Counted from the stretch's first letter, positions 4,254 through 63,554 are shown. The stretch: 64,000 bases of DNA from Enterobacterales bacterium (GCA_041556195.1 JBFFIY010000002.1:278-64277), one strand, 5' to 3'. Notes: a model not told the origin generated them from the letters alone. Numbers and translations: made by a program.

Positions 4254-4255
4254 AT

Positions 4256-4702
4256 ATGAATTTTGACTTTCACTTACAAATTGGACCTAAAGCGACAGAT
4301 CATGACAGAGCTTTCTTATTAACTCTTCGTAAATTAACCATGGTTGAACATCTGGAAAAGGCTGGTCTGTATTTATCAAATGAAGAACATGAATTTAGAC
4401 TCAATGATGCTTATGACTGTTGTCACCTGATCAGATATGCTGACAAAAACATAGGCCTGTTAAAATATCGAGAATATGACAATAAAATTGAAGTCATGCA
4501 AATACAAATTCATCCTGGGCAGCAGAACAAAGGCTTTGGCAAAATGGTTCTCAACAGAGTATTGCTCTGGTCAAAAGAAAAACACAAAAATATTGAATTA
4601 AGCGTTTTAAAAAATAATCCGGCCATACTATTATATGAAAAACTCGGATTCCTGATAACAGGTGAAGACAAGTATGAATTTCACATGCAACTAAGGCACT
4701 AA
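4256..4702 (+). CDS. GNAT family N-acetyltransferase
   Basis: 148 aa. Acetyl-CoA binding block QNKGFGKMVL and C-terminal YEKLGF. Confidence 0.7.
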   Translation: MNFDFHLQIGPKATDHDRAFLLTLRKLTMVEHLEKAGLYLSNEEHEFRLNDAYDCCHLIRYADKNIGLLKYREYDNKIEVMQIQIHPGQQNKGFGKMVLNRVLLWSKEKHKNIELSVLKNNPAILLYEKLGFLITGEDKYEFHMQLRH

Positions 4703-4806
4703 ACCTATCTTAAAAGATTAGCTAATTACCCGACTATTTCTAAAGTTTGTGAAATTGAAGGGATAAATATTGATGTATTTCAATAGGCATTTTTAACCCC
4801 ACTATT

Positions 4807-6177: not shown

Positions 6178-6734
6178 ATTGACACCTCTTGCTTAGAGTT
6201 ACCTTTAACATGATCCAGCAGCAAACTTTCCATATTTTTGAGCAAGGTTGCTACGCCTTGCATGGCTAGCATTACCGGCATAACCAACATTAATGATTTG
6301 AGCAGGTATAATGCGGGTAATCCCCCTACTTCTCCTGAAGATTCATTAGCTCTCCAACTGGCAATAACAGTATCCAGGCTGAAAAAGAACAGATAAAAAC
6401 AAACAGGAAATAGTAGAAACAAAGTGCCAATGACATCAACCCAGGCTTGATAGTGCCAATTTTTCTTTCTATAAATAATATCTACTCTGACGTGTTCATC
6501 TCTCGTCAGAGTATAAGCAGCCCCCACCATAAAAATGATGCTATGGATCCAAAGCGCACTTTCTTGTAACTCAATAGAAGGGATCTTTAAAATATAGCGT
6601 AATACCACCACCAAAAACTCTAGCAAAACCAACAGTAACGTCAGCCAGGCCAATAGCTTTCCCGTGGTTGCCATAAACTTTTCTATAGGTTGATATAATC
6701 TTTGAAAGGGAATTTTATTGAGCGTTTTTAGCAC
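6174..6734 (-). CDS. dctQ: TRAP transporter small permease subunit
   Basis: 186 aa, 4 predicted TM helices, directly upstream of and overlapping dctM. Confidence 0.75.
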   Translation of the reverse strand: MLKTLNKIPFQRLYQPIEKFMATTGKLLAWLTLLLVLLEFLVVVLRYILKIPSIELQESALWIHSIIFMVGAAYTLTRDEHVRVDIIYRKKNWHYQAWVDVIGTLFLLFPVCFYLFFFSLDTVIASWRANESSGEVGGLPALYLLKSLMLVMPVMLAMQGVATLLKNMESLLLDHVKGNSKQEVSI

Positions 6735-7010
6735 AGTAATATTTTTTTATCCACAGTAACAAAATAAGCTCCGATTTTAGCATCAAAGGGTTAGAGTAAC
6801 GAATGTTTTTTACAGCTCAATGAAATAAGCACTCTTGCGGTTAGTGTGCACTCGCATACTTTAAAAAGATAATATTTCAACAATATTTTAAAGTTTTTTT
6901 CCACAAAGTTATCCACAAGCAAAAATAAAAGCATGATAATTGTTTGATTCCAATCACTTAGCTATGTTTATTCAAAAAACACATGAAGAAATTGATTTGT
7001 TTTGATACCC

Positions 7011-7343
7011 CTACCAACTAAATAAAATCCATCTAGGGGGTATAACATCATCGTTCATATCCGGGCCAAATTTTATAAAAACGCCCGTGGCATTTTCATC
7101 CACCAGATAGTAGGGTGGCATACCATTTTTGGGTGTTACTTTGATAGCTCTTAGTACGCCATTGATGCGATATTCTTTGAGATTGGCTTCTGGGGTTGAG
7201 CGTATCGTTACTGCAGGTTCCGGTATATTTCCCTTCTCAACTTTAGGTCGTTTCTCAACTGGCTCGGTTTGAGCAGCCTGTGCAGGGCCGACTGAGAGAA
7301 AAACAAATGTAGCTAATACCACTAAAATCCTTACTGTTTTCAT
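7011..7343 (-). CDS. secreted DUF2782-like protein
   Basis: 110 aa, signal peptide. Block YYLVDENATGVF...RWILFSW. Divergent from polA, a position I recall for DUF2782 genes in other gammaproteobacteria. Confidence 0.55.
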   Translation of the reverse strand: MKTVRILVVLATFVFLSVGPAQAAQTEPVEKRPKVEKGNIPEPAVTIRSTPEANLKEYRINGVLRAIKVTPKNGMPPYYLVDENATGVFIKFGPDMNDDVIPPRWILFSW

Positions 7344-7469
7344 AATGAAGTTCCGATTGTTATTAAGTACATGATTTCTAATAACAGCATAGCAAAGAAA
7401 GATGACGAAAAAAGCCTATTAGCTTACAATCGTATCAGTTTTTTCACTATTCTGAGTCTAATAGATTAT

Positions 7470-10244: not shown

Positions 10245-10368
10245 ACAAAACCGTAACTCATTGATTATAAAAAAAACATAGCACTCGAAACAATTTGTTA
10301 CATTTGTTTGTTATTTATTTGTAATTTAAGCCGTAACTTTTCCTGATTACTGCTGTCTATAATTCCGT

Positions 10369-10485
10369 AAGCACTACATTAGTGCTTCCCGCAATCCCCT
10401 CCTAAATTTGCGGGACATCGGTTCGGCTTCCCCAGGCTTAACCGATACTATGCCCCGACAGCCCCCCAGCATCGGGGCTTTTTTT
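10369..10485 (+). ncRNA. candidate small RNA (about 117 nt) with its own -10 box and intrinsic terminator
   Basis: TATAAT at 10358-10363. Three stem-loops: 10369-10387 AAGCACTA/TAGTGCTT, 10388-10414 CCCGCAA/TTGCGGG, 10417-10446 ATCGGTT/AACCGAT. Terminator at 10452-10485 (GCCCCGA..TCGGGGC followed by T7). Loops are C-rich. No convincing ORF. The -35 box is weak. Confidence 0.5.
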
Positions 10486-10500
10486 ATGGCTGATTATTTT

Positions 10501-11256
10501 TTAACCCCTCTGCCGAACAACCTCAAACAGAGCAACACCAGTCGCCACAGAAACATTCAAACTACTAACCTGCCCTGCCATAGGAATAAATATCAATTCA
10601 TCACAATGCTCCTGAGTTAGCCGGCGTATGCCCTTGCCTTCTGCGCCCATTACCATGGCCATGGGACCGGTTAATCTGGTTTGATACAAAGATTGAGTGG
10701 CATCTCCAGACATGCCAATGATCCACACCCCCGCTTGTTGCAACGAGCGAAGTGTCCTCGACAGGTTGGTGACTTGAACTAATGGAATGGTCTCCGCAGC
10801 GCCACAGGCAACTTTACTGACAACAGCGGTCATACCTACTGCTTTATCTTTGGGAACTATCACAGCCATAACACCCGTTGCATCACAGGTTCTCAGGCAG
10901 GCACCTAAATTATGGGGATCCGTGACCCCATCCAGCACCAGTAATAAGGGCGCATGTCCGGCATTCTCAACTGCAATCATCAATTGATTTTCTGACCAGC
11001 TTTTACCGCCAGAAACCGCTTCACCACACTGAGCAATGATACCCTGATGACTGCCTCCTTGAGCCAATTCATTCAGTTTTTCTTTTTTACCATATTCTCT
11101 ATCAATGCCTTTAGAATCATCTATGACCTGTTGTAATCGATGATCATGGCGGCCTTTGAGTACTATCAATTTTTGAATGCGTTCAGGATGGTTTTTAACC
11201 AGGGAATGAACCGCATGAAGCCCATAAACCAATGATGGGATATTTTTTTCAGTCAC
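10501..11256 (-). CDS. rlmB: 23S rRNA (guanosine-2'-O)-methyltransferase, SpoU/TrmH family
   Basis: 251 aa. SpoU motifs ([38 protein letters not shown]). Immediately downstream of rnr, as in the enterobacterial rnr-rlmB operon. Confidence 0.9.
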
Positions 11257-16494: not shown

Positions 16495-17112
16495 TTAGCC
16501 CAACCTTGAAAATTTAAGCAATTTTTTAAGATCAAATAATATTTCTTTGCCGCGGAAACTGGCTTCCCGATCCGTATTAACCGCCTCATAACGCAACATA
16601 ATGTTACCCAATGGATCCATCAGGTACACATAACCAGGCTTTAATCGTTCAGATCTCTTAATCCAGTTGAATCTGGGGTTAGAAAAATGTTTGGCCACAT
16701 ATAATTTGGACTCTTCGCTAAATCCTTCTCCATAATTCACCATTAATTTCTCAACTCGATCCATTTCTTTAGCGAGAGCCACACGAGTTTGATTAATCAG
16801 ATAGGCATTAACCTGACACTTGTGCTGACAATTTTTATCTTCTGCTACGTATAAGAGCCACCAGTGGTGATTCAGATCTTTCTCTAACAGATCTCTCCCC
16901 TGATATTGTAAACCGGTATCTTCAAGTAAAATTACAGGCTTAAGTAACTCACCCTTATTTACCGTTGAAAGATCCTTAAACCAGCCAAGCCACCATCCAC
17001 TGTAGGCAATGATGATGGGCAAAGCAAACACCAGCAATAATGCCACCATGGTAGATCGATTTTGAGTCGTAGGTTTTTCTGTAGAGGGGGTATTTTGATT
17101 TTCTGCTGTCAT
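16495..17112 (-). CDS. membrane-anchored cox-cluster protein with CxxxC motif (SCO-like?)
   Basis: 205 aa, one N-terminal TM. CQHKC motif in ..YVAEDKNCQHKCQ... Overlaps the SURF1 gene by 4 nt. Confidence 0.5.
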   Translation of the reverse strand: MTAENQNTPSTEKPTTQNRSTMVALLLVFALPIIIAYSGWWLGWFKDLSTVNKGELLKPVILLEDTGLQYQGRDLLEKDLNHHWWLLYVAEDKNCQHKCQVNAYLINQTRVALAKEMDRVEKLMVNYGEGFSEESKLYVAKHFSNPRFNWIKRSERLKPGYVYLMDPLGNIMLRYEAVNTDREASFRGKEILFDLKKLLKFSRLG

Positions 17113-17852
17113 ATTTTTTTAGCACTCTTTAATGCTCGATTTCTTACAAGCTCTCGATTTCTAACTATCAGGGCTAACACCAACAATGCCGTTGCCAGAG
17201 CAAACCATTGAATAGCATAACCAATGTGTCGATCAGGTGTCATGATGGCAATCGCCCACTCTCTTAACAAACCCTGTTCAGACTCTGGAAAAGTTTGTCT
17301 CACCACTAACGGCATCAATTGGATGCCTTTTGTTTGAAAAAATGCTTGAAACTGCGTGAGATTCAAACCCGGTAAAGGTATAGCTTTATTCAATTCAATT
17401 TCAGGCAAATCTACCACCCGATAATCACCGGGCAGATAAACGTAACCCATTACCCTGTTTTGTAAATTTGATGGTTTTGGAGCTGCAAATTGCCTTGGAC
17501 CATTAGTGAAAGGAAGCCAGCCTCTATCAACTAACACTGCCAAATTTTGATCGCTCATAAATAAGCTGAATACATTATACCCCAGACGACCCTGGCGAAT
17601 ACGGTTGTCTAAAAAAAATGTCCACTCATCTTGCCAGTGGCCCTGTACAACTACAGGCATAAACTGTGATCTGGATGGATCAATCAAAGTTTCAAGTGAT
17701 ACCGGTTCCGCCGAACCTTGTTCTGCTCTGACATCGAGCAACTGTTGTTTTTGTCGGGCTCTATCCAGCTGCCAAAACCCTAATGACATCAAACTGGAAA
17801 ATACTGCTATCAATAACAACCCTGTGAGCCATCTATTAATAATTTTCATCAA
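17109..17852 (-). CDS. SURF1 family cytochrome oxidase assembly protein
   Basis: 247 aa. N- and C-terminal TM helices, GFWQLDR near the N-terminus, HIGYAIQWF near the C-terminus. Confidence 0.85.
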   Translation of the reverse strand: MMKIINRWLTGLLLIAVFSSLMSLGFWQLDRARQKQQLLDVRAEQGSAEPVSLETLIDPSRSQFMPVVVQGHWQDEWTFFLDNRIRQGRLGYNVFSLFMSDQNLAVLVDRGWLPFTNGPRQFAAPKPSNLQNRVMGYVYLPGDYRVVDLPEIELNKAIPLPGLNLTQFQAFFQTKGIQLMPLVVRQTFPESEQGLLREWAIAIMTPDRHIGYAIQWFALATALLVLALIVRNRELVRNRALKSAKKI

Positions 17853-50172: not shown

Positions 50173-52065
50173 ATGAAAGATAACACTTTAGACGATCAAT
50201 CTTTTGATCTTATCATTATGTATTTTACCAATATCGCGACAAATACATCAGATCCGTTGACTTGTTGCAACAATGTTAAAGCAACATTTCCCCTTGTGAT
50301 GGAAGAGCTGTTTGGTCCTCCTCAAGGAGAATTATTGTCTTTTTGGCTTGGCGTGCAACTATGGAATATTTTTCCTCATCCTGATAATAATTTTCAACCC
50401 ATAAAGATTGAACTACCTAAACGTAACCAGAGTTGTTTGTGTGGTTCAGGTAAAAGATTTAAACAATGTTGTATCAATGTCCCAATGATTGATAGTTTTT
50501 CTTCAGAGATGTTCTGGCCCTATCTGGTTGATATGTTATCTCATAAAGACCTGGTTGAAGCTGCAAAGCAACGCCAACTACCAGTGGATGGATTGAGAAT
50601 AGTGGCGGAGATATACTTAAATAATGATGAACCAAAAAAAGCGATAGCTTTGCTAGAACCTTCTTTTGCTGATGAAGGTAAACATTTGAGCAAACAACAC
50701 AGCGGATTAACTGACTTACTCTGTGATGCATACAATGAACACTATCAGACCGACAAAAAGAAGGTCAAGCTTTTGGAGCAATTAAAGCATCACCCTGTAA
50801 AACGGATCCGCTGTGAAGCCTGGCAGCGGATAGCCAGTGTAAATGCTGAGAAAGGGAATCATAAGCAGGCTATAGAGGCACTATATGAAGCGATGAAAGC
50901 TGATCCAAAGGACTTGAGCAATGCGATCTTAGAAATTAAATTACTGGTTTCTTCCAACAATATCGAAATGGCTAAGCAACGAGCGAATTTTTGGTACACG
51001 AAAATAGTTAAATTCCCGGATGTTTTCAAAAAATTAGGTGACTTCCTGGAGACAGCCAAAACAGATCCTGTCGAGGCTCTTTCTCAAATGCAAATAGATC
51101 GATTTAATGATCCTCAACTCGAAGTTTTACAGCACTGGTTTGATACAAATCATCAATCGATCCCCTTGCCTGATTATCAATTGGATTCTATGGGAGTAGA
51201 TGAAGAATCCATAGAAAATTTTATTCTTAAATCACCCAAATCCTGTAGTAAAACCTTTGAGATGTGGCAAGATGATTTTTCTCCTTGTGATAAGCCATTT
51301 TCAACTCAATGGATAAATGAAGTAGATACCTGGTTTGATCCCTACGATACTGATTGGATTGAGTTCTTAGAAAAACATCCAGACTCTGTACATAATATCG
51401 ACTTACTCGATGATGTTATCAACTGTTTAATGGCACACCCGGGAAATGAATTGCCTGTTAGTCCTGCGAAACAGTTGGCAAAAAAAATCGCTGACCATGT
51501 ACTAAATATCCTTTTACCACTGTCAACAGAAATTTTAGAAAATTCAACTCAAAGATTCAGTTGGCTGATTCTTGATAATCGGCCAGCACTGAGAATTCTG
51601 GCAAACAGAATCCTGTTGACCGAAGACAATAGCCCTGAAGCCTTCACTTTGATAAATACTTATATCAAGCTCAATCCAACAGATAACCATGGTTTTAGAT
51701 CTCTGCTTATGAACCAGATGATCCGTCAACGTGAGTATAAACCAGCCAAAGAACTCGCATCCCAATACCCTGATGATTGTTTGGTCGACATGATGATGGG
51801 AAAAGCATTGGCTGATTTCGCCGAAGGAGACAAAGTAGCTGCAGGGGAAAACCTGAGATCTAGCCTGCAATATCACCCCTTTTTGATTCCGTATTTAACA
51901 AGAACTCGAGTGGCTAAACCAACATTTAGCGAATTCGGCATTGCCATGGGCGGCAAGGATGAAGCATGGATTTATCGAGAAGAAATGCGTGATGTCTGGT
52001 TACAGATGCCGGGAGCCTTAGAATGGTTAAAAGAACAACATAAATTAATTGACTATAAAAAATGA
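50173..52065 (+). CDS. SEC-C motif protein with TPR-like helical repeats (630 aa)
   Basis: CLCGSGKRFKQCC metal-binding SEC-C motif near residue 100. The rest is helical-repeat-like. No enzymatic motif recognised. Confidence 0.6.
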   Translation: MKDNTLDDQSFDLIIMYFTNIATNTSDPLTCCNNVKATFPLVMEELFGPPQGELLSFWLGVQLWNIFPHPDNNFQPIKIELPKRNQSCLCGSGKRFKQCCINVPMIDSFSSEMFWPYLVDMLSHKDLVEAAKQRQLPVDGLRIVAEIYLNNDEPKKAIALLEPSFADEGKHLSKQHSGLTDLLCDAYNEHYQTDKKKVKLLEQLKHHPVKRIRCEAWQRIASVNAEKGNHKQAIEALYEAMKADPKDLSNAILEIKLLVSSNNIEMAKQRANFWYTKIVKFPDVFKKLGDFLETAKTDPVEALSQMQIDRFNDPQLEVLQHWFDTNHQSIPLPDYQLDSMGVDEESIENFILKSPKSCSKTFEMWQDDFSPCDKPFSTQWINEVDTWFDPYDTDWIEFLEKHPDSVHNIDLLDDVINCLMAHPGNELPVSPAKQLAKKIADHVLNILLPLSTEILENSTQRFSWLILDNRPALRILANRILLTEDNSPEAFTLINTYIKLNPTDNHGFRSLLMNQMIRQREYKPAKELASQYPDDCLVDMMMGKALADFAEGDKVAAGENLRSSLQYHPFLIPYLTRTRVAKPTFSEFGIAMGGKDEAWIYREEMRDVWLQMPGALEWLKEQHKLIDYKK

Positions 52066-52573: not shown

Positions 52574-53686
52574 ATGACATGGCAACCAGATCAACCATAC
52601 AATGATTTACCACTCTTGCCTCCAAAGTTCGATTTGGATTCAGTTGCTATTTTAAAGGCTTGCATTCCAGCACGTGTCGCTTTGGCTGAGCTTAAAAAAA
52701 CCGGGGAATTGCTACCAAATCAAAGGGTATTAATAAATTTACTACCTTTGTTAGAAGCGAAAAACAGCTCTGAAGTCGAAAATATACTGATCACCACAGA
52801 TCAATTATTCCAATTTGCGCATGAAGACGGCCTTGCCGATGCAAAAACCAAAGAAGTACTTCGCTATAGATCGGCGTTGCACCGTGGATCTCAAGAACTA
52901 GCCAATAAACCGTTGTCTGGCAAAATCGTAATGGAAATATGCAGCACAATCAAAGGCATTCAGATGAATGTTCGCAAAATACCAAGAATCACTCTGGCAA
53001 ATCCCCTCACAGGTAAAGTGATCTATACACCACCATCAGGTGAAAATCACATCAGAGATCTTTTGGCTAATTGGCAAGCTTTTTTACATCAAGATGATGA
53101 AATTGATCCACTCGTTAAAATGGCAATCGCTCATTATCAATTTGAAGCCATCCACCCGTTTCTTGATGGTAACGGTCGAACGGCTCGAGTACTGAATATA
53201 TTGTACTTAACCGGATCGGGCTTATTGAGTTTACCCATTTTACAATTGAGTCGATTTATCCTTCAAAACAAACAGGATTATTATCATCTGCTTCATGAAG
53301 TAACAAAAAATGGAGACTGGCAAGGCTGGATCCTTTATATATTAAAAGCTGTGGAACAGACTGCAACCTGGACAACTCAAAAAATAACCGCCGTAAGGCA
53401 ACTTATTGAACATACCACAGAGTTCATTAAAACCAACTTACCCAAAATCTACAGCCATGAACTGGTTCAAGCCATTTTTGAACAACCCTGTTGTCGAATT
53501 ACTAACCTGGTTGAACAAAATATTGCCAAAAGACAAACTGCCTCTGTGTATTTAAAACAACTATGTGAGATCGGTGTTTTACAGGAAATAACCACTGGCA
53601 AAGAAAAACTTTTTATTCATTCAAAATTGATTCAATTGATAACTGAGGGTAAGCATGAGTTTGATTATTACTTAGCTAAACAATGA
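52574..53686 (+). CDS. Fic family protein (class II, N-terminal inhibitory helix)
   Basis: 370 aa. Active-site motif HPFLDGNGRTAR (HxFx[D/E]GNGRxxR), inhibitory-helix motif SSEVEN (SxxxEN), C-terminal wHTH-like region. Confidence 0.85.
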   Translation: MTWQPDQPYNDLPLLPPKFDLDSVAILKACIPARVALAELKKTGELLPNQRVLINLLPLLEAKNSSEVENILITTDQLFQFAHEDGLADAKTKEVLRYRSALHRGSQELANKPLSGKIVMEICSTIKGIQMNVRKIPRITLANPLTGKVIYTPPSGENHIRDLLANWQAFLHQDDEIDPLVKMAIAHYQFEAIHPFLDGNGRTARVLNILYLTGSGLLSLPILQLSRFILQNKQDYYHLLHEVTKNGDWQGWILYILKAVEQTATWTTQKITAVRQLIEHTTEFIKTNLPKIYSHELVQAIFEQPCCRITNLVEQNIAKRQTASVYLKQLCEIGVLQEITTGKEKLFIHSKLIQLITEGKHEFDYYLAKQ

Positions 53687-53976: not shown

Positions 53977-54070
53977 GGGGGGAATTTGACATTTGCAAAC
54001 AGATAGCTTATGTTTCATGTATTAACTATTATTAATAATAACATCTGAAAATAGAGCTAATTTTATTTAT

Positions 54071-55570
54071 ATGGATATTTCCAAATATAAAGCTGGTACT
54101 TACAAACAGAGCTATCAATATAAGTATTTTCTACCCAGCAAGATAAACCATTCTTGGATATTTTCAGATCCCCAAGTCCAGCAACTGCTTAGTGAAGCCG
54201 ATAGAGCTTTAGGAGCGTTGGATGCTTTTTCCGAATATTTGCCCGATGTAGATTACTTTGTTCAAATGCACCTTAGTAAAGAAGCTACTCAATCTAGCCG
54301 TATAGAGGGGACTCGAACAAATATAGAAGAAGTATTTATTGATGCGCAGAATATTGAACCAGAGAAAAGGGACGATTGGGAGGAGGTGCAAAATTACCTG
54401 ATAGCCATTAATACCGCTATAAAACAGTTACATGTTTTACCCTTCTCCAATCGCCTTTTAAAAGATACTCACAGAACCTTGATGCGAGGTGTTCGAGGCG
54501 AACATAAGAGACCCGGAGAGTTTCGGCTTAGCCAAAACTGGATCGGCGTAAGCCTGAAAAATGCTATATTTGTTCCACCTCATCAAGATCACATCGAAGA
54601 GTTGATGAGTGATCTCGAAAAATTCATCAATAATGAATTGAATGTCCCACATTTAATAAAAATTGCAATTGCCCATTATCAATTTGAAACCATTCACCCA
54701 TTTCTAGATGGAAACGGTAGGCTGGGTAGATTGATGATAGTACTTTATTTAGCGAGCTTTAATCAATTACATAAACCCGCTCTTTATCTATCTGATTACT
54801 TTGAGAGAAACAAGGTGGAGTACGTTAACAGGATGATGGCTGTCCGCTTGGCGGATGACATGAAGTCATGGCTGATTTTCTTTCTACATGGGGTATTAGA
54901 GACTTCAAAAAATTCAATTCAGGTATTTAAGGATATTATTGCGCTTAAATCGAAGCTGGAGCGTGAAGTGTTACCCTATTTTAGTACACGAAGGCAGCAG
55001 AATGCTCAGAACATAATGCGTCATCTGTATCAAGCCCCTGTGGTGAGTATAAAGGAGATCGCTGATCTGCTAGGTATCAACCTCAATACAGCATCTGCTT
55101 TAATCAATGACTTTGAAAAATATGGTGTGCTTACTAAATTAACGGCAAAAAAACGTAGTCGTTTATATGGCTTTAGTGAATATATGATGATATTTAAAAG
55201 ACAATATGATATTAGAGAATATGAGGATGAAGTAAATACCCAGGAGGATACCCAGGAGGATACCCAGGAGGACACCCAGGAGGATACCCAGGAGGATATC
55301 ATTACCAACAGTTCTCATGACATTGACTGGAAGATAAAACAGCTAATATCAAAATTTGATGGTGTGCTTAGTCGAGCTGAAATTCAGACTCTACTTGATT
55401 TGAAAGATGCCGAATATGTTAGGCAGCAATATATTTTGCCTGCGCTTAAAATGGGGGTTATTGAAATGACTCTACCTGATAAACCCTCGAGTAAGTTGCA
55501 GAAATACAGATTAACAACCAGAGGTGAGAAGATGCAGCAATATATAAGGACAGCTTCTAATGAAAACTAG
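54071..55570 (+). CDS. Fic family protein (class II) with repeat linker and extra C-terminal winged-helix-like module
   Basis: 499 aa. HPFLDGNGRLGR active site, SSRIEG inhibitory motif, (TQED)x5 linker, C-terminal ..LPDKPSSKLQKYRLTTRG.. block. Its stop overlaps the next gene's start by 11 nt. Confidence 0.85.
   Translation: MDISKYKAGTYKQSYQYKYFLPSKINHSWIFSDPQVQQLLSEADRALGALDAFSEYLPDVDYFVQMHLSKEATQSSRIEGTRTNIEEVFIDAQNIEPEKRDDWEEVQNYLIAINTAIKQLHVLPFSNRLLKDTHRTLMRGVRGEHKRPGEFRLSQNWIGVSLKNAIFVPPHQDHIEELMSDLEKFINNELNVPHLIKIAIAHYQFETIHPFLDGNGRLGRLMIVLYLASFNQLHKPALYLSDYFERNKVEYVNRMMAVRLADDMKSWLIFFLHGVLETSKNSIQVFKDIIALKSKLEREVLPYFSTRRQQNAQNIMRHLYQAPVVSIKEIADLLGINLNTASALINDFEKYGVLTKLTAKKRSRLYGFSEYMMIFKRQYDIREYEDEVNTQEDTQEDTQEDTQEDTQEDIITNSSHDIDWKIKQLISKFDGVLSRAEIQTLLDLKDAEYVRQQYILPALKMGVIEMTLPDKPSSKLQKYRLTTRGEKMQQYIRTASNEN
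55238..55297 (+). repeat. 12-bp in-frame tandem repeat x5 (ACCCAGGAGGAT; one copy ends C)
   Basis: Read directly. Encodes TQEDTQEDTQEDTQEDTQED inside Fic gene 2. Confidence 0.95.
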
Positions 55571-57737
55571 TGGTGAATACAAGATTAGACCTGCTGGACG
55601 GCACATATTAACTATCGGTAGAGATCTGATACAAGACTCATATGCGGCAGTTGTAGAGATTGTGAAAAATTCATTTGATGCAGATGCAAGTGAAGTTCTA
55701 ATCGAATTCAATGGTTTTACTGATAAAAAAGAATATACAATTGTAATACAAGATACTGGACATGGTATGTCTCATGAGGTGGTAATTAACAAATGGATGG
55801 TACCTTCAACCGAGGACAAACTAAAACGTAAAACGAGTCCTAACGGACGAGTTATGCAAGGAAAAAAAGGGGTGGGCCGCTATGCTGCTTCTATTCTTGG
55901 CGAAGACTTACTACTGGAAACGGTTGAAGAGTGTGGCAAAAGAACAATTGCATATTTAGATTGGAAAGACTTTGAAAATGCAGATTATCTAGATGATGTA
56001 GAAATATTAATAGAAACTGAATCTATTAATAGTACTAGCGGCACTAGACTAACCATCATGGGGGGAGAAGAACGTTATATTGAATGGAATAAGAATCAAT
56101 TTAATAAACTTAGATTTGAATTAAAAAAATTAATGCCTCCATCTAACATTGCTGAAGATGAAGAGCCCCAAAATAGTGATTTCTCAATTAGGTTATCAGT
56201 TGTTGGATTTGAAGGGGTTGAACCAATTGATGAGGTTATAGAACCATACCCAATTGCTGATTTATTTGATTATAAAATATCAGGAAAATTAAACTCTAAA
56301 GGAAAAGGTAAGCTAAATTACAGCTCGCAAAAAACAAAAAGTACATCTGATGAATCAATAGAATTCGATGCCGAAATTATTGGGACTGGTTGTGGAGAAA
56401 TTGAGTTTAATATTATGGTGTATGATCGTGAAAAAGAAGCTATTGAGGCTCTTATTAAACGAGGTTTGAAAGATGAACACGGTAAATATTTGGGTAAACT
56501 TGAAGCTAAGCAGTTATTAAATGTGAACAACGGGGTTGGTGTATACCGTAATGGTTTTAGAATCAGGCCGCTTGGTGATCCTGATTTCGATTGGCTTAAA
56601 CTAAATGAACAAAGAATACAAAATCCATCTTTGAGAATTGGTAGTAATCAAGTAATTGGGTTCGTTCACATTCAGTCTGAAGAATCATCGAATTTAATTG
56701 AAAAAAGTGCTCGAGATGGGCTAAAAGAAAATGAATCGTTTGACGTCCTAAAAAAAGTCACTTCGAAAGTTATTCAAGAACTCGAAAATAGACGTTTTCA
56801 ATTTCGAAGAGCCCTATCATTGAGTAATCCGAAGGCAAAAATAGAGCGCGAATTAAAAAAAATATTTTCAGTTGATAATGTTAAAAATAACATATCAAGA
56901 AAACTTAGAAAGTCAGGTGTAAGGACTGATGTTTTATCAGAAGTTCTTCAAATAATAGAACGAGATGCTAATGAAAAAAATGCAGCAGCTGAAGATATTC
57001 GACAAACTGTGGCTATTTATCAAGGTCAAGCTACGCTTGGAAAAATCATAAACGTAATTCTTCATGAAGGACGTCGGCCTTTGAATTTCTTTAAGAATCA
57101 AGTCCCAAATATAGAATATTGGCATGAAGAATATGTAAAATCTCCAACTCCTGAAATATTAAGTAAGATTATTCCTATTGCATTAAATCTTGGAGATAAT
57201 GCGGATATTTTTGCTAGACTTTTTAGTCGCTTAGATCCTCTTGCTGCAGGAAAAAGAGGTGCAAAGGTATCTGTGCCTTTTTCAGAAGCGCTTCAAGGCG
57301 TATTTTCCGTCTTTGAAGAAGAGATGGTATCTCAAAATGTAAAGATAAATATTACCGGACCAGATGACTTTATGTTTATTGGCTGGGTACAAGACTTATA
57401 CGCAATATTTACTAATTTAATTGATAACAGTCTTTATTGGATGGAAGAAAAAAACATATCAAATAGAGAGATTAATATCGACTTTTCGATTGATGGTAAA
57501 CAAATTCAATATATTGACTATCGTGATACCGGTCCCGGAATATCTCCTAGCCTACTAATAGCAGATCTTATTTTTGAACCGGAATTTACTACGAAAAATG
57601 AAGGGACAGGCCTAGGGCTAGCTATAGCTGGTGAATCAGCCGCTAGAAATGGACTTGACTTGAAGGTGTTCGACTCAAAACTCGGTGCATATTTTAGAAT
57701 GCAACCCAAATTGGACGGAAGCAATGCAGACATTTAA
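55560..57737 (+). CDS. dual-GHKL protein: N-terminal MORC/Hsp90/MutL-like ATPase domain + C-terminal histidine kinase (H-box + HATPase_c)
   Basis: 725 aa. N-terminal Bergerat-fold motifs EIVKNSFDA (N-box), DTGHGM (G1), GKKGVGR (G2). Candidate phospho-His in VILHEGRRPLNFF (His502, codon 57063-57065). Second ATPase domain: NLIDNSLYW, DTGPGI, GTGLGLAIA. No TM segment seen. Confidence 0.8.
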   Translation: MKTSGEYKIRPAGRHILTIGRDLIQDSYAAVVEIVKNSFDADASEVLIEFNGFTDKKEYTIVIQDTGHGMSHEVVINKWMVPSTEDKLKRKTSPNGRVMQGKKGVGRYAASILGEDLLLETVEECGKRTIAYLDWKDFENADYLDDVEILIETESINSTSGTRLTIMGGEERYIEWNKNQFNKLRFELKKLMPPSNIAEDEEPQNSDFSIRLSVVGFEGVEPIDEVIEPYPIADLFDYKISGKLNSKGKGKLNYSSQKTKSTSDESIEFDAEIIGTGCGEIEFNIMVYDREKEAIEALIKRGLKDEHGKYLGKLEAKQLLNVNNGVGVYRNGFRIRPLGDPDFDWLKLNEQRIQNPSLRIGSNQVIGFVHIQSEESSNLIEKSARDGLKENESFDVLKKVTSKVIQELENRRFQFRRALSLSNPKAKIERELKKIFSVDNVKNNISRKLRKSGVRTDVLSEVLQIIERDANEKNAAAEDIRQTVAIYQGQATLGKIINVILHEGRRPLNFFKNQVPNIEYWHEEYVKSPTPEILSKIIPIALNLGDNADIFARLFSRLDPLAAGKRGAKVSVPFSEALQGVFSVFEEEMVSQNVKINITGPDDFMFIGWVQDLYAIFTNLIDNSLYWMEEKNISNREINIDFSIDGKQIQYIDYRDTGPGISPSLLIADLIFEPEFTTKNEGTGLGLAIAGESAARNGLDLKVFDSKLGAYFRMQPKLDGSNADI

Positions 57738-58809
57738 ACTACTCATGGTTGAAGATAATCAGAGCGACTTACAAACAAGTATAGATACGCTTGAACGATA
57801 TAAGAGTCAGAAAAACAGAAATATAGAAATGATCTCTTCCAAGAGCATTGAAGAAGCTTTTTCTCTACTCGACAATACATTTGATGGTGCAATTATCGAT
57901 ATGAAACTGTCTGATAAAGGAGGTGAAGGTAATCAGGTTATACGGAAAATAGCAGAATCTAATATTAGAATTCCAATTGTAGTGTTTACAGGTACGCCGT
58001 CAGTTGCTGATGCAGGTAATGCTTATATAGAAGTATGCAAAAAAGGAGAAAATACTTATGAGGAGATATTTGATCGTTTATGGGGTATACATTGTTCAGG
58101 TTTAACTAGAATTATGGGGGGAAGAGGAATTATTGAAAGCACCCTTAATCAAGTCTACAAAGAAAATATACTGTCTCAGAAGGACGCATGGGTAAACTAT
58201 GGTGTAGTTGATTCGGAAAAGACTGAAAAATCACTTTTAAGATATACACTAAATCACCTTCTAGAACTAATTGATGAGAATGAAAAATCCTACCCTGAAG
58301 AATATTTTATTAACCCACCTGTAAGGAAAGGATTGACAACAGGTAGTCTAGTACTAAATGTAAAAGATAATAAGTGGTTTGTTGTACTTAATCCCGCTTG
58401 TGATTTAGTGCTGCGTCCTGATGGTAAATTCAAAACGGATAAGCTTTTTCTAGTCGAAATTGAAAACGAAGAAAATGTAATCGCTACTGCTTTAGGGGAT
58501 AATAATAATAATCCAACTAGCAACAAAGCGATAAAATCCCATAATAAAAAATTATCTGATATCTTTAAAAACAACCACACTCCCTATAATCATTGGGTTC
58601 CTAAAACCACCTTTTTTTCTGGTGGATTTTTAAATTTTAGGTCTGTTTTGACTTGTGACACTGTCACATTTATAGAGAAATTTTCAGACCCCAAATCACA
58701 AATTTCACAACCATTTATCAAAGATGTAGTATCTAGATTCTCGTCCTATTATGCGCGTCAAGGTCAACCTGATATTGATTTTTACAGCCGATTAAAGTCA
58801 GCTGATTAA
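57724..58809 (+). CDS. response-regulator receiver domain protein with unassigned ~240-aa C-terminal domain
   Basis: ATG 57724 (MQTFKLLMVEDN..) overlaps the kinase stop by 14 nt. REC signatures: E10-D11, acceptor Asp59 (AIIDMKL), VVFTGT, CKKG. The C-terminal part (..VVLNPACDLVLRPDGKFKTDKLFLVEI.., ..SRFSSYYARQGQPDIDF) matches no family I can name and has no HTH. Confidence 0.75.
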   Translation: MQTFKLLMVEDNQSDLQTSIDTLERYKSQKNRNIEMISSKSIEEAFSLLDNTFDGAIIDMKLSDKGGEGNQVIRKIAESNIRIPIVVFTGTPSVADAGNAYIEVCKKGENTYEEIFDRLWGIHCSGLTRIMGGRGIIESTLNQVYKENILSQKDAWVNYGVVDSEKTEKSLLRYTLNHLLELIDENEKSYPEEYFINPPVRKGLTTGSLVLNVKDNKWFVVLNPACDLVLRPDGKFKTDKLFLVEIENEENVIATALGDNNNNPTSNKAIKSHNKKLSDIFKNNHTPYNHWVPKTTFFSGGFLNFRSVLTCDTVTFIEKFSDPKSQISQPFIKDVVSRFSSYYARQGQPDIDFYSRLKSAD

Positions 58810-58815
58810 TATGTA

Positions 58816-60387
58816 TTAAAGAATTGAATGTACGATTTTTGCAATTTTATTAGCCAAATATGGAGGGACAGCATTACCAACTTGTACATATTGCTGAGTT
58901 CGAGTGCCGACAAAAAAATAATTGTCAGAAAATGTTTGAATTCTAGCCGCTTCGCGTACAGTTAAACTACGACATTGTGAAGGATCTGGATGAATGAAAT
59001 AGTGTCCATCTTTTGAAATATGGCACGTAACAGTTGTGGCTGAAATGTTCCAAGGTTGAACTCTAAATCGATCAGCAAATTTACCTGACTTAAAATTTTT
59101 ATGATTAGGCATTAATTCATCTGGATAATCTGGTGATTTTGGTGTTAGTGAACTCCAATTGTTTTTTGCTCCAATTTGTGCCCAAACACTACAAAACAAA
59201 TATCTCTGTAAATCTGACGACATATGTCCTCTGGTATCGTGATTACAAACATGATTACCCAAATTCTTATCGTAATACCATTTCCGTAAATCGGCATTAT
59301 CGATTTTTTTGTTTCGTCTTAATCCAAAAATTTTCCCCTGACCTAAACTGGGGGTAGTAAGATTATCTATAATATTTTTTAGTTCGTTCGCTATATCCTT
59401 TTTTGAGTTTAGTTTCAAAGATTTTATAGTATTAATTGATTGTGTTTTTATTGTGTGAATCCAATTGGCATCAGTGTTTTCTTCTTTAGATAAACCGCTT
59501 CTTAATGCCGGCAAGTCTTTAATCACTTCAGAAAGTGTTATCTGTGTATCTTTTTTATCGAGAATTAATTTGTTATCCCATTTGTGTGCTAGATCCTCTC
59601 TAATACCAAGTAGAATAACTCGATGGCGGCGCTGTGGAATTCCATAGTGTTCGCATTTAACAATGAAATCCTGAGGTTTAACAAGTCCATCTTCAACAAT
59701 TGGAGTTGTCAGAGAGAATATTTTATACTGGTGTTTTGAGAAACCTCGCTTTGGATTAACATTTACTGCTTTGCAAGGATTATGCAGATCCTTGAAGATA
59801 GTTTCGTAAATAGACTTTCCATCTACTTTGGCCGATAGCATTCCTTTTACGTTTTCCATCACAAATGCCATTGGTTGGAACTGTGCGATTATTTTTAAAT
59901 ATTCTTTGTATAAGAAATTACGATGGTCTTCCTCTGCCTTATATTCGTCATTTGCTTTATTTTTTGACCTGCCCACAAGTGAATAAGCTTGGCACGGAGG
60001 CCCTCCAATAAGTATGCATTCATCCAAACCTAGAGCTTCTTTTATTCTTTTATTAATTGCTCTATTATCTTTCCCCAGTTCGAGGCATAAAGCTTCTCTA
60101 TCTGCAGCCTCAAGTTCTGCTGAAACTTCGGGTATTTTATAAAGCTCATCTTCAGGGCTTTTCCCTAACTCTCCTTTTAAAAAGTTGTAATAGGCCTCAG
60201 GAACGTCATTAGCAAATTGCCGATAAAACGAACGAAGCTTTAAAGTCCTATGGGCACTTTGTTCTTTTTCAATTGAAATAGCAATCTTGAAAGGATGTTT
60301 GTCTTCATCATCCTTATATGTGGAGAAGCCTTCACCAAGCCCTCCTGGGCCGGAAAAAATGTCAATTATTTTGACTGGTTTGCTCAT
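58816..60387 (-). CDS. dcm: DNA (cytosine-5)-methyltransferase
   Basis: 523 aa. Motif I DIFSGPGGLGEGF, motif IV GGPPCQAYS, motif VI MENVKGM, QRRHRV, motif X GNAVPP. Long variable region. Confidence 0.92.
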   Translation of the reverse strand: MSKPVKIIDIFSGPGGLGEGFSTYKDDEDKHPFKIAISIEKEQSAHRTLKLRSFYRQFANDVPEAYYNFLKGELGKSPEDELYKIPEVSAELEAADREALCLELGKDNRAINKRIKEALGLDECILIGGPPCQAYSLVGRSKNKANDEYKAEEDHRNFLYKEYLKIIAQFQPMAFVMENVKGMLSAKVDGKSIYETIFKDLHNPCKAVNVNPKRGFSKHQYKIFSLTTPIVEDGLVKPQDFIVKCEHYGIPQRRHRVILLGIREDLAHKWDNKLILDKKDTQITLSEVIKDLPALRSGLSKEENTDANWIHTIKTQSINTIKSLKLNSKKDIANELKNIIDNLTTPSLGQGKIFGLRRNKKIDNADLRKWYYDKNLGNHVCNHDTRGHMSSDLQRYLFCSVWAQIGAKNNWSSLTPKSPDYPDELMPNHKNFKSGKFADRFRVQPWNISATTVTCHISKDGHYFIHPDPSQCRSLTVREAARIQTFSDNYFFVGTRTQQYVQVGNAVPPYLANKIAKIVHSIL

Positions 60388-60453: not shown

Positions 60454-60900
60454 ATGGATATAGTTAATAAAAAACATCGTTCTCGTATGATGGCTAATAT
60501 TCGTTCTAAGGATACAAAACCTGAGGTACTTGTTAGAAAAGCTATACACAAAGCAGGTTACAGGTATAGGTTGAACACAAAAATTGGGCGAATAAGACCA
60601 GATATCGTCTTAACCAAACTGAAAGTAGCAATATTTGTACACGGTTGTTACTGGCATCGTCACGCCGAATGTAAGCTATGTTACATGCCAAAAACCAGAA
60701 TTGAGTTCTGGAATAAAAAATTTACTGAAAATATGGAAAGAGATAAAAGAGTAGAATTGACACTTAAATCGCAAGGATGGAGAGTTGCCGTATTCTGGGA
60801 ATGTGCTACGAGAAATGAAGAACGCCTTAAAACGGAAATTAACAACCTTGTAAGTTGGCTGGAATCAAAAGAACAGAGTTTTGAAACCGCCCTGATTTAA
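60454..60900 (+). CDS. vsr: very short patch repair endonuclease
   Basis: 148 aa. Blocks SRMMANIRSKDTKPE, YRYRLN, PDIVL, AIFVHGCYWHRH. Divergent from dcm. Confidence 0.9.
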   Translation: MDIVNKKHRSRMMANIRSKDTKPEVLVRKAIHKAGYRYRLNTKIGRIRPDIVLTKLKVAIFVHGCYWHRHAECKLCYMPKTRIEFWNKKFTENMERDKRVELTLKSQGWRVAVFWECATRNEERLKTEINNLVSWLESKEQSFETALI

Positions 60901-61052: not shown

Positions 61053-61802
61053 TTGTTATTTCAAGATCCGAATGATGAACCTGCATTGGTTTTGTTGAAA
61101 AAAATAGCGAAAGAAAAAGAAAGGTTGATTGCGGAGAAGAAGATAAAGAAACAGAAGGCGTTACCTGAGATTAGGGAGGATGAGAAGCCGTTTGAGTTGT
61201 CGGAGGGATGGGAGTGGTGTCGAATAGGAAACGCAGCGATTTCAACGGATTATGGATTGTCAGATAAATCGACAGTAGGAGATAAGGGAGTTCCTGTCCT
61301 TGCAATGGGACATATACAAGGAGGTGAAATACTTCTGGGAAATCAAAAGGTTGTTCCTGAGTCGGTTGAATCACTCCCTGAGCTATACCTTAAAAATAGA
61401 GATTTACTTTATAACAGAACAAATAGTGCAGAATTAGTTGGTAAAACTGGTATATACCGCGGTGATGACCAAGAGTATACATTTGCTTCTTACTTAATAA
61501 GAATTAGAACAGATAAAGAGTCATTGCTTCCTGAATTTATAAATCTAAATATGTTGGCACCTGAGTTTAGGGTTACGCAGATTAATCCACACCTGAAACA
61601 ACAATGTGGACAAGCGAATGTAAATGGAACGATAATGAAGCATATGATAGTTGCTATTGCTCCTGAATTTGAGATAGCGCGTATAGTTTCTAAAATTGAT
61701 GAACTAATGGCATTGTGTGACCAACTAAAAGCGCAACTCAGTGATGCCCAAACCACTCAACGCCATCTTGCTGACGCGATTGTTGAACAAGCTGTTAGTT
61801 AA
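61053..61802 (+). pseudogene. hsdS: type I restriction-modification specificity subunit (HsdS) remnant: central conserved region + second target-recognition domain
   Basis: Begins inside the HsdS central coiled-coil (FQDPNDEPALVLLKKIAKEKERLIAEKKIKK), then a TRD and the C-terminal conserved helix (KIDELMALCDQLKAQL). In-frame stops lie upstream. No hsdM or hsdR gene was identified in the window. Confidence 0.7.
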
Positions 61803-61850: not shown

Positions 61851-62438
61851 ATGGATAGAATCACAGAATTTCATAATATTATGCCAATATCGAATATGAC
61901 TTCGGTGATGCAACATGGCCTGTTATCCCATGCTCGAGCCTCACAACTTAACCATGCTGATATCTCATTGGCCGAAATCCAAGATCGCCGTGATACAAAG
62001 TCTATTCCTCAAGGTAGGAAGTTACATGAATACGCCAATGTGTATTTCCATGCCCGAAATCCCATGATGTCCAAACGTAGAGATGAAGCTCAGAACCTTT
62101 GTGTTCTAAGGGTTTCCAACGAAATACTGAATATCCCTAATGTAGTAGTAACCGATCAAAATGCGGCTAGTGACTATGCTCGCTTTTTAGCTCCTGATCA
62201 AATGAACCGATTTACATTAGATCTGGATCTGATCTATGCTAGTGACTGGAGACACAATGATAAGATCTCCTATTGGAGGCATAAATCCAGGAAGTGTGCT
62301 GAGGTACTGGTTCCTGATATGATCCCAGTTGAGTATATTTTTGGTGTCTATGTGGTGAACCCACAGTCCGCAGCATTACTGCATCAAGTAGGTTGTCACT
62401 TACCTGCTGAAATTAATTCTGATTTGTTTTTTGGGTAA
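61851..62438 (+). CDS. darT: DarT ssDNA thymidine ADP-ribosyltransferase toxin (DUF4433)
   Basis: 195 aa. N-terminal FHNIMPISNMTSVMQHGLLS block, central NVYFHARNPM, C-terminal KCAEVLVPD (catalytic Glu context). Followed 6 nt later by a macrodomain gene. Confidence 0.8.
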   Translation: MDRITEFHNIMPISNMTSVMQHGLLSHARASQLNHADISLAEIQDRRDTKSIPQGRKLHEYANVYFHARNPMMSKRRDEAQNLCVLRVSNEILNIPNVVVTDQNAASDYARFLAPDQMNRFTLDLDLIYASDWRHNDKISYWRHKSRKCAEVLVPDMIPVEYIFGVYVVNPQSAALLHQVGCHLPAEINSDLFFG

Positions 62439-62444
62439 ACGATT

Positions 62445-63554
62445 ATGATGAAAGTGCTAATAGGTAATATGTTTGAGACGTCTATGCAGACATTGGTGAA
62501 CACCGTGAACTGTGTCGGTGTGATGGGTAAAGGAGTCGCAAAAACCTTTAAAGATCAATACCCTACAATGTTTGAAGATTATAAGCAACGCTGCGATCAC
62601 AAACAGGTGAAGCCTGGAGTTCCTTATTATTACCATGATATGTTAGGAGTCTCTGTTTTAAACTTCCCAACCAAAGATCATTGGCGCTCAGCCTCTAAAC
62701 TTGCAGATGTGATTAATGGTTTAGATATATTCGTTCAGAACTACAAGAAATGGGGAATTACATCAATTGCATTCCCTCCATTAGGTTGTGGAAATGGTGG
62801 ACTTGAATGGGAGTTAGTTGGTCCATTAATGTATCAACGCTTAAAACCTTTGGATATTGATATTGAAATATACGCACCTTTCGGAACATCAAAGACACAG
62901 CTAAAAAAAGAGTTTTTTGAGAAAACTGTTGAAGTTGATTTCTCAGAAAAAGGTAAAAAATCCAAAGCTTTTAATCCCGAATGGCTGGCTTTAATCGAAG
63001 TGGTAAAACAATTAGGCTTACAGCCATATACCAGTCCAATAGGAAGAACTATCTTTCAGAAAATTTGTTATATCATGACAGAACTTGGTACAGAAACAGG
63101 ATTTAAATTTAAACAAGGCAGTTATGGACCTTTTTCTGACAATATCAAAGACGCTTTGAACTATTTTTCAAATAGTAATCTCATTCAGGAAGAGCAACTG
63201 GGGAAAATGACAGCATTAAAAGTTGATGTTGCATATGATAGTTATTTAGTTAAATATTCGACAGTAATTGAGAAACGCTATAAATCAATTGTTAAAACAG
63301 TTGATCTCTTTAGTCGAATCAAAAGCACCGATCAAGCAGAAGAAGTCACTACCGTTCTTTTTGCTTCTAGAAGAGTTAAAGAAAAAAATGGAACTGCAAC
63401 TGAGCAAGAACTTTTTGATTATATTTTGGATTGGAAAAAATCCTGGAACAAACAAGACAAGAAAGAATCTGTATCATCGACAATTAGAAATCTTGAAATG
63501 CTTGATTGGCTTAAGCTAAATTCTAGTGATAGTTTTTCTCAGCAAATTAATTAA
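62445..63554 (+). CDS. darG: DarG antitoxin (N-terminal macrodomain + C-terminal DarT-binding domain)
   Basis: 369 aa. Macrodomain blocks LVNTVNCVGVMGKGVA, NFPTKDHWR, IAFPPLGCGNGGL. About 200 aa of C-terminal domain. Confidence 0.8.
   Translation: MMKVLIGNMFETSMQTLVNTVNCVGVMGKGVAKTFKDQYPTMFEDYKQRCDHKQVKPGVPYYYHDMLGVSVLNFPTKDHWRSASKLADVINGLDIFVQNYKKWGITSIAFPPLGCGNGGLEWELVGPLMYQRLKPLDIDIEIYAPFGTSKTQLKKEFFEKTVEVDFSEKGKKSKAFNPEWLALIEVVKQLGLQPYTSPIGRTIFQKICYIMTELGTETGFKFKQGSYGPFSDNIKDALNYFSNSNLIQEEQLGKMTALKVDVAYDSYLVKYSTVIEKRYKSIVKTVDLFSRIKSTDQAEEVTTVLFASRRVKEKNGTATEQELFDYILDWKKSWNKQDKKESVSSTIRNLEMLDWLKLNSSDSFSQQIN

Follow-up and report, generated by a model that had tools for sequence, protein, structure and literature searches.

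We examined a 64,000-nucleotide stretch of DNA from an Enterobacterales bacterium (GCA_041556195.1, JBFFIY010000002.1:278-64277; hereafter the window), in which an earlier note had marked three genes as a candidate undescribed two-component defence system: a Fic gene, a gene for a soluble histidine kinase with two GHKL ATPase domains, and a gene for a protein that joins a receiver (REC) domain to a C-terminal domain of no recognised kind. We find that the module is real and linked to defence, and that its boundaries must be redrawn: the Fic gene falls outside it, and the neighbouring genes for a C5 cytosine DNA methyltransferase (dcm) and a Vsr very-short-patch endonuclease (vsr) belong inside. 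The explanation toward which we lean is a four-gene cassette linked to restriction-modification (kinase, receiver-effector, dcm and vsr), in which a phosphorelay would lead to a toxin-like effector and methylation would signify self.

Conservation of the kinase-receiver pair and its cassette

One genome per species was scanned, with open reading frames (ORFs) called and searched with the window proteins, yielding 80 loci with a relative of the receiver protein. The kinase gene lies directly upstream of the receiver gene in 77 of these, which span more than 15 phyla. Of the 80 loci, 57 have a C5 methylase and 41 have vsr, which usually lies directly 3' of the receiver gene; the usual gene order is dcm-kinase-receiver-vsr, on one strand and with overlapping ends. 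Where full 10-kb flanks were available (53 loci), dcm was found in 40, vsr in 25, some DNA methylase in 49 and a Fic gene in 7. These counts are lower bounds, at least two further loci having a methylase or methylase remnant that the search missed. Relatives of the receiver protein number more than 1,259, with identities of about 50% even in unrelated phyla; counted as protein clusters, the family numbers more than 1,200 at 90% identity and 872 at 50%.

The layout of the window, with kinase and receiver genes, a convergent dcm of the 523-aa type and then vsr, is repeated at locus L080, whose dcm product occupies the same position and is orthologous to that of the window (56% identity). Conjugative plasmids of Campylobacter likewise carry the kinase and receiver genes with a convergent dcm, and a Hymenobacter plasmid carries vsr-dcm-kinase-receiver. 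The association reaches far into the family: four out of four relatives at 27-30% identity to the receiver protein have both a dual-GHKL kinase gene and a DNA_methylase gene adjacent, the accompanying nuclease varying among Vsr, Mrr and MutH-like proteins, and all four cassette genes are present with a relative just 27% identical. Two IMG/VR contigs (L093 and L094, 4582-9562), out of 2.9 million viral contigs, have dcm-kinase-receiver-vsr on a predicted prophage, with a large serine recombinase on one side and a tyrosine integrase/terminase region on the other.

Operons commonly have overlapping gene ends; what goes beyond chance is the retention of the kinase-receiver pair. Adjacent almost throughout, and found on plasmids and in a predicted prophage, kinase and receiver are supported as an obligatory, horizontally mobile pair. 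The neighbourhood survey bears out the expectation of the earlier note that this pair occurs in restriction-modification and defence contexts. That note had also called dcm-vsr an orphan, a description that does not survive the comparison with the canonical operon and with L080: dcm-vsr belongs to the signalling cassette and is no bystander, dcm being inverted to the far side of the pair in the window.

The kinase

Pfam places HATPase_c_3 at residues 29-142 of the kinase and HATPase_c at residues 612-718. A profile search against the PDB agrees, aligning residues 28-190 with HtpG, MORC3 and MutL and residues 491-714 with histidine kinase DHp and CA structures (E 6e-14), so that the proposed combination of a MORC/Hsp90/MutL-like N-terminus with a histidine kinase core holds up. 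The N-terminus also resembles that of the BbrUII/HgiDII restriction enzymes (NF050001, E 5e-13), and it is solely over this GHKL N-terminus that the kinase matches the REase_II and BbrUII models. No sensor or transmembrane input domain was found in the kinase with Pfam.

The H-box, LHEGRRPL, has His502-Glu503 in DHp, and the middle region has the conserved motifs YRNGFRIRPLGD..DW and EKSARDGL. Among 70 kinase homologues the N-terminal Bergerat motifs (E33/N37/D40, DxGxG and GxxGxG) are invariant, as are His502-Glu503 and the C-terminal N/G1/G2 boxes. Taken with the partner protein, the whole phosphorelay residue set (H-box His, N/G1/G2 boxes, and the acidic pocket, Asp, Thr and Lys of the receiver) is invariant or nearly so in homologues.

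The receiver protein and its C-terminal domain

Alignment with homologues sets the true start of the receiver protein at ATG 57724 and not at an upstream GTG. Its REC domain (aa 1 to ~125) keeps D/E10, D11, D59, T89 and K107 in an alignment of 32 homologues; Pfam matches it weakly (Response_reg, residues 7-100) and has nothing for residues ~125-361. Beyond the REC domain come a helical hairpin (~136-186) and a beta-rich C-terminal domain (~196-361) with the motifs P224-x-C226-D227, H290 and R345-Q-G-Q-P349. Across 112 representatives at 27-49% identity, D59, G69, G207, P224, C226, R345, G347 and P349 are invariant, and D227, H290, K333 and R338 nearly so. The many invariant polar residues of the protein suggest catalysis or a fixed protein contact.

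The C-terminal region gave no sequence match in Pfam, NCBIfam, PADLOC or the PDB. Pfam finds no helix-turn-helix (HTH) or other output domain in the window receiver protein, and an HTH does not recur among the 112 representatives, where there is one weak HTH_56 match (E 0.007). The earlier description of a REC domain fused to a domain without a recognised output motif is thus borne out, the receiver fold being confirmed by Foldseek with a full-length AF2 model (pLDDT 75.7), which matched only receiver domains, over the N-terminal part.

A model of the C-terminus alone (pLDDT 75.5, pTM 0.66, barrel core pLDDT 86-94) behaved differently. Its top 50 Foldseek matches in the PDB were all MazF/Kid-family toxins plus one CptN toxin, with E 0.02-0.15, a probability mostly of 0.9-1.0 and a target-normalised TM of 0.51-0.70, and PemK/MazF-like proteins head the matches in the BFVD viral structure library too. 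We propose that this domain has a MazF/PemK-like fold, an assignment new here, which we offer as a lead of moderate strength. The structural check that the earlier note had called for is therefore answered in part: the leading matches are MazF, Kid and PemK, at E values of 0.02-0.15 and with no support from sequence profiles.

Searched against 1.84 billion representatives, a profile of the C-terminal domain recovered 872 clusters at 50% identity. Of the 150 clusters listed, most are proteins of 340-390 aa with the domain at ~195-355, and shorter entries look like fragments, so the domain appears to occur essentially only fused to a receiver. One 571-aa protein (P0314) is a single ORF that has the N-terminal part of a C5 DNA methylase (Pfam, residues 105-244) and the receiver C-terminal domain (418-566); it may be a gene fusion that hints at a link between methylase and effector, or else an artefact of assembly or frameshift.

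Proposed mechanism

The dcm product matches Pfam DNA_methylase (E 4e-45) and the PADLOC models DrmMII and MTase_II, and its translation contains FSGPGG, GGPPCQ, ENV, QRR and GNAVPP. Vsr, the fourth gene product of the canonical cassette, matches the Vsr models of both Pfam (E 2e-26) and PADLOC (E 6e-28). A classical Type II restriction-modification system was considered and rejected; a methylase is present, but Vsr is the sole recognisable nuclease.

We envisage the cassette working as follows. The paraMORC/MutL-type N-terminal GHKL domain would sense DNA, or the state of the methylation/restriction machinery, in an ATP-dependent manner, standing in for the ligand-binding input domain usual in kinases. 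Because two GHKL domains are intact, His502 is invariant and the receiver has the full D/E10-D11-D59-T89-K107 set, phosphotransfer from His502 of the kinase to Asp59 of the receiver is to be expected. Phosphorylation of Asp59 would, judging from the predicted fold, switch the C-terminal domain. Since that domain is a predicted MazF/PemK-like barrel with invariant Cys/Asp/His/Arg loop motifs, its output would be toxin-like (cleavage of RNA or another nucleic acid, or growth arrest) and not transcription. The methylase would be the self-marking component of the module, its marks on self DNA keeping the sensor silent, and Vsr may repair the T:G mismatches that arise from 5-methylcytosine, or nick DNA, by analogy with the MutL-Vsr interaction. 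A more specific form of this explanation, in which the receiver C-terminus is a phosphorylation-gated toxin of MazF/CcdB fold, the cassette is an analogue of restriction that cuts no DNA itself and relays the methylation or restriction status to a toxin arresting the cell, acting in methylation-gated abortive infection and in some genomes as a guard of Type I/III systems, and Fic is an addition to the window transcript, we put forward tentatively, as an elaboration that may well be wrong.

Several points weigh against the explanation we favour. The module is known here from sequence and predicted structure. The MazF-like assignment comes from a model with Foldseek E values of just 0.02-0.15; Pfam PemK_toxin (PF02452) has no match to the receiver protein; an hhalign comparison of the C-terminal profile with a small MazF alignment gave a probability of 0.1, that alignment consisting of three hand-entered sequences (two MazF baits and Kid) and five database sequences, and a MazF homologue search having returned just 15 relatives; and the model has low confidence in the loops that contain the invariant PxCD and RQGQP motifs. 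Cassette composition is not fixed, since vsr is missing from 39 of the 80 loci and dcm from some, and at least one locus (L015) has no restriction-modification gene nearby. Nor are the 80 loci independent samples. Judging from their titles (L001-L080), the cassette is strikingly frequent in metagenome-assembled genomes (MAGs) of sponge symbionts (Poribacteria, Latescibacterota, Dehalococcoidia and Caldilineaceae), so the sample is phylogenetically uneven; sponge-symbiont lineages have large defence repertoires. Finally, the authors of Ambrosia, a validated anti-phage system, report a winged HTH (wHTH) in its receiver and favour transcriptional control (2025 preprint, 10.1101/2025.09.30.679545).

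Possible regulation of the adjacent methylase and nuclease

The last of these points belongs to a regulatory explanation, proposed in PMC8011034 and held as the working model for Ambrosia, in which the pair switches expression of the adjacent methylase or nuclease on infection and the receiver is a transcription factor. Bellieny-Rabelo et al. (2021; PMC8011034) described, in a purely computational study, a kinase-like protein with HATPase_c_3, HEF_HK and HATPase_c and a receiver-like protein with Response_reg_2, whose genes were 91.6% linked. C5 methylase genes lay upstream, Vsr directly downstream and HNH_2 frequently nearby; the authors connected this pair with the paraMORC ATPases described by Iyer et al. 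(2008; PMC2292703), proposed that it regulates restriction-modification, and gave the receiver C-terminus no fold. Defence by Ambrosia requires all five of its genes, which encode an XRE regulator, an N6-adenine methylase, a histidine-kinase/HSP90-like ATPase, a receiver and a Type IV HNH nuclease; D60 of its receiver is essential, D60A abolishing defence, and infection induces reporters put at the positions of the methylase and of HNH (10.1101/2025.09.30.679545).

The induced reporters, the loss of defence in D60A and the reported wHTH all speak for regulation, and some relatives of the window pair stand beside complete Type II-like pairs with an XRE C-protein (at L097 the genes are XRE C-protein, MutH-like gene, dcm, kinase and receiver). 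For the window pair itself, however, the HTH searches described above argue the other way, as do the predicted MazF-like barrel and the invariant polar residues; the commonest cassette, moreover, has no classical restriction endonuclease to regulate, and the Ambrosia and window proteins are likened by description only. We therefore regard a regulatory role for the window receiver as doubtful, while taking it seriously.

Restriction-modification context and a possible guard role

By positional count, the cassette is nested in Type I operons (hsdM-hsdS-[cassette]-hsdR) in 11 of the 80 loci, and in 13 it stands in line with Type III-like mod/res genes. Such placements invite the explanation that the methylase or restriction complex is what is guarded: the pair would monitor the integrity of the restriction-modification system and fire its toxin when a phage anti-restriction factor disables that system. 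PrrC is the guard of EcoprrI, and prrC occupies the same position in Type I operons. The half hsdS kept just downstream of the cassette in the window, and the predicted resemblance of the effector fold to an endoribonuclease toxin, also fit a guard. Yet most loci carry only dcm, with or without vsr, and no Type I/III genes; and Type I operons are in general favoured sites for the insertion of defence genes, so the nesting may express no more than that preference. We think a guard function improbable.

The gene order at L020 is hsdM-vsr-dcm-kinase-receiver-hsdS ... DarG-hsdR, which the window resembles in having a half hsdS and DarTG just downstream. The window cassette may thus lie within a Type I restriction-modification locus that has decayed and in which defence genes are embedded, and an hsdR gene could lie beyond the window end.

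The gene directly upstream of the kinase gene varies. It encodes an HNH_2 endonuclease in three loci. Six Poribacteria loci (L009, L013, L034, L060, L067 and L077, at ~4400-7700) are embedded in Type I systems and have no dcm; they have one or two TIR/SEFIR proteins encoded upstream of the kinase, directly so in all but L034, which has two short unannotated ORFs in between. In L009, L060 and L077 an AAA_21 ATPase gene follows 3' of the receiver gene. The TIR/SEFIR proteins and the AAA_21 ATPase may be alternative effector partners. A Dehalococcoidia MAG (L029) has, at 16757-17455 on the minus strand and ~6 kb from the cassette, a 232-aa ORF with two tandem MazF/PemK-like domains.

Gene organization in the window and the Fic gene

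Features of the window are collected in Table 1. The three same-strand genes with overlapping ends were confirmed from the coordinates and by reading the junction DNA directly. The kinase ATG at 55560 and the Fic stop codon TAG at 55568-55570 make an 11-nt overlap, with AAGGA ~10 nt 5' of that ATG, and the receiver ATG and the kinase stop codon TAA at 57735-57737 make a 14-nt overlap; the convergent dcm gene ends (58816) 6 bp from the receiver stop codon at 58807-58809. All of the Fic, kinase and receiver motifs quoted in the earlier note are present in the translations, and the neighbours that had led it to speak of a defence island (a second Fic gene, dcm, vsr, the half hsdS and DarT/DarG) were confirmed by Pfam and PADLOC.

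Table 1. Genes and other features in and around the kinase-receiver cassette (window coordinates)
Feature	Coordinates	Strand	Description
SoFic orthologue	52574-53686	+	370 aa; NCBIfam SoFic equivalog, 595 bits (cut-off 550)
Promoter-like site TTGACA-17-TATGTT	53986-54014	+	Consensus scan, 10/12 positions match
Fic gene	54071-55570	+	499 aa; Fic_N + Fic + wHTH + Fic-like_C
Dual-GHKL histidine kinase, soluble	55560-57737	+	725 aa
Receiver-effector protein	57724 (ATG)-58809	+	361 aa
C5 cytosine DNA methyltransferase (dcm)	58816-60387	-	523 aa
Vsr very-short-patch endonuclease	60454-60900	+	148 aa
Type I hsdS, half gene	61053-61802	+	PADLOC Specificity_I profile positions 345-588 of 589
DarT-DarG toxin-antitoxin pair	61851-63554	+	Pfam DarT, E 2e-38; PADLOC DarG, E 9e-91

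The promoter-like site, 57 bp 5' of Fic, is the probable start of a Fic-kinase-receiver transcript, as far as consensus matching can tell. No terminator-like site was found in the interval between Fic and kinase; with the promoter-like site preceding Fic, co-transcription of Fic and kinase in the window is plausible. The stop/start overlap probably couples expression of Fic to that of the kinase there, as a single case. As regards Fic, the obligatory co-expression read from these overlaps in the earlier note is a matter of the window alone: Fic stands directly upstream of the kinase in none of the 80 loci.

It could be argued that Fic, kinase and receiver nevertheless make up one three-gene defence system with Fic obligatory and dcm-vsr an unrelated neighbour. 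Besides the 11-nt overlap and a promoter-like site found only upstream of Fic, this explanation can appeal to the modular nature of the slot upstream of the kinase, taken elsewhere by dcm, HNH_2 or a TIR protein, which makes an effector swap conceivable, and to a different Fic-domain gene ~3.5 kb downstream in L080. The survey nonetheless tells against it. A Fic gene lies within 10 kb in nine of the 80 loci, on either strand and at varying distance, and directly upstream of the kinase in none of them. The closest Fic homologues (81, 65 and 60% identity) all have no kinase/receiver pair adjacent: the first is followed by small ORFs and then an HNH gene, the second stands among toxin-antitoxin genes, and the third (P0124; L087-L090) is convergent with a different GHKL-methylase-AIPR system. 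It is dcm and vsr, not Fic, that co-vary with the kinase-receiver pair, and Fic matches the single-gene SoFic model of PADLOC. Conservation of the trio, which the earlier note had proposed to check and without which it was prepared to give the trio up, is thus seen for kinase and receiver and is lacking for Fic. We give little credence to an obligatory Fic partner and conclude that Fic is a SoFic-like neighbour, probably co-transcribed in the window and not a conserved member of the module, which has taken the place upstream of the kinase that usually belongs to dcm.

The system beside P0124 consists of an HATPase_c_3 protein, DNA_methylase, AIPR and DUF4420; such Fic genes are repeatedly found next to restriction-modification loci of paraMORC type, though outside their operons.

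The Fic translation carries the HPFLDGNGRLGR active site and an S-SRI-EG motif. Its residues 13-377 match the SoFic model of PADLOC (E 6e-114); the protein scores 158 bits against the NCBIfam SoFic equivalog, under the 550-bit cut-off, and is only 26% identical to the neighbouring 370-aa SoFic orthologue, which is a single-gene defence candidate in its own right. At 55236-55298 a tandem repeat of 12 bp, ATACCCAGGAGG (5.2 copies, 96% matches), encodes an (EDTQ)n linker that joins the Fic core/wHTH to the Fic-like_C domain; this linker may vary in length.

A housekeeping two-component system regulating a nearby metabolic or envelope operon, to which the canonical H-box, CA domain and receiver residues and the L015 locus might be thought to point, was rejected on domain content and context and is hardly credible, given that no sensor or transmembrane input and no DNA-binding output were detected, that the pair is patchy across phyla at ~50% identity and is carried on plasmids and a prophage, and that its flanking genes vary apart from methylases and nucleases.

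Other features of the window

Just upstream of the SoFic gene, at 50173-52065, is a gene for a protein of 630 aa, with TPR repeats and, at aa 84-100, a SEC-C/SWIM-like metal-binding motif, which has only weak PADLOC matches (E2-like, ~20 residues). A tRNA scan found no integration-site tRNA in the window. Over ~1-41 kb the GC skew is negative, and from ~53 kb on it is positive, following a switch of the main coding strand, and the minimum of the cumulative skew, near 52-54 kb, coincides with the left edge of the defence island.

Implications and comparison with known systems

If the proposed mechanism is true, it links epigenetic self-marking to a phosphorelay-controlled toxin, across many phyla and on conjugative Campylobacter plasmids and prophages; this would be a third logic beside DNA-cutting restriction and nucleotide-second-messenger immunity, and it would assign a function to an unannotated domain missed by the current Pfam, NCBIfam and PADLOC models. 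There is also a lesson for annotation: dcm-vsr beside a "sensor histidine kinase" and a "hypothetical protein" or "response regulator" should not be called orphan methylases. The value as a discovery is limited. The system is not undescribed, as the earlier note had it: the architecture and the link to C5 methylase and Vsr were published in 2021 (PMC8011034), and Ambrosia has been validated on the same theme (10.1101/2025.09.30.679545). The interest that is left lies in the mechanism, in the toxin-like output domain without annotation, and in the coupling of Fic, a single case.

With the pair of PMC8011034 the window shares the soluble kinase architecture, the adjacent receiver-like protein with its unassigned C-terminus, the C5 methylase and Vsr context, with HNH_2 close by in some loci, and the same kinds of taxa (Chlorobi, Geobacter relatives, Bacteroidota and enterobacteria); it differs in that dcm is inverted and downstream, with Fic in its usual place. 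The corresponding Pfam models do not recognise our proteins. PF19191 (HEF_HK) has no match to the window kinase even at E<=10, nor to eight homologous kinases; PF19192 (Response_reg_2) has none to the window receiver or to the 112 representatives, and we never saw this model match any protein here. In all, more than 120 relatives were scanned, and neither they nor the window proteins match either model. The kinase of Rhizorhabdus pSWIT01 does reach 22.8 bits against PF19191, which is sub-threshold for a model of only 67 positions, and the window kinase has homology to it along its whole length (E 1e-26), taking in the GHKL, middle, H-box and CA regions. The window pair is therefore a branch of this superfamily that the short Pfam models miss; by those models it is at best a sister branch of the published pair. 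A blastn search of E. coli genomes with the Enterobacter homologue gave no match.

Members of a more distant branch, L101 (Rhizorhabdus wittichii pSWIT01, 3825-8081) and L103 (a Bacillus cereus plasmid, 4962-11160), encode a dual-GHKL kinase of 783-818 aa and a partner of ~630 aa without a Pfam match. The Rhizorhabdus partner has a faint receiver-like match around its would-be acceptor Asp, and in Bacillus cereus an N6/N4-type methylase follows the pair.

Compared by description only, Ambrosia and the window have in common a methylase, an HATPase kinase, a receiver (acceptor Asp D60; D59 in the window) and a small nuclease, and the need for each of these in Ambrosia is a precedent for the cassette proposed here; the window has a C5 methylase and Vsr, and no XRE, N6 methylase or HNH gene adjoins its pair. 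A system with HATPase and REC domains is also among the predicted, unvalidated systems of DefensePredictor (PMC13092281).

The paraMORC GHKL ATPases (PMC2292703) and BbrUII/HgiDII share with the window kinase an N-terminal GHKL domain of HATPase_c_3 type with intact ATP-binding motifs, as well as linkage to cytosine methylases and Vsr-type endonucleases and lateral mobility. Whereas a nuclease or helicase follows their GHKL(+S5) module or is its partner, GHKL in the window kinase is followed by a histidine kinase DHp-CA core, with output to a separate receiver protein.

The receiver C-terminal domain (residues ~196-361) would resemble, in its predicted overall fold, the MazF/PemK/Kid toxins (CcdB/MazF fold). 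It differs from them in lacking sequence similarity, in its extra helices and different invariant motifs (PxCD, H290 and RQGQP), and in being almost always fused to a receiver and having no antitoxin gene. Fic, for its part, is like SoFic in that its Fic_N + Fic core matches the PADLOC model with HxFxDGNGRxxR and the inhibitory S/TxxxEG intact, and unlike it in falling under the NCBIfam cut-off and in its extra (EDTQ)n linker and Fic-like_C winged helix.

Detocs was rejected as an identification: PADLOC, run on the window, gave no Detocs match and has no model that covers the pair, in agreement with the earlier note, and domain content differs. The window has no TPR sensor, buffer receiver or PNP effector, and Detocs has no methylase, Vsr or GHKL sensor. 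What the two would have in common is the principle, a defence phosphorelay in which a receiver is fused to an effector that does not bind DNA.

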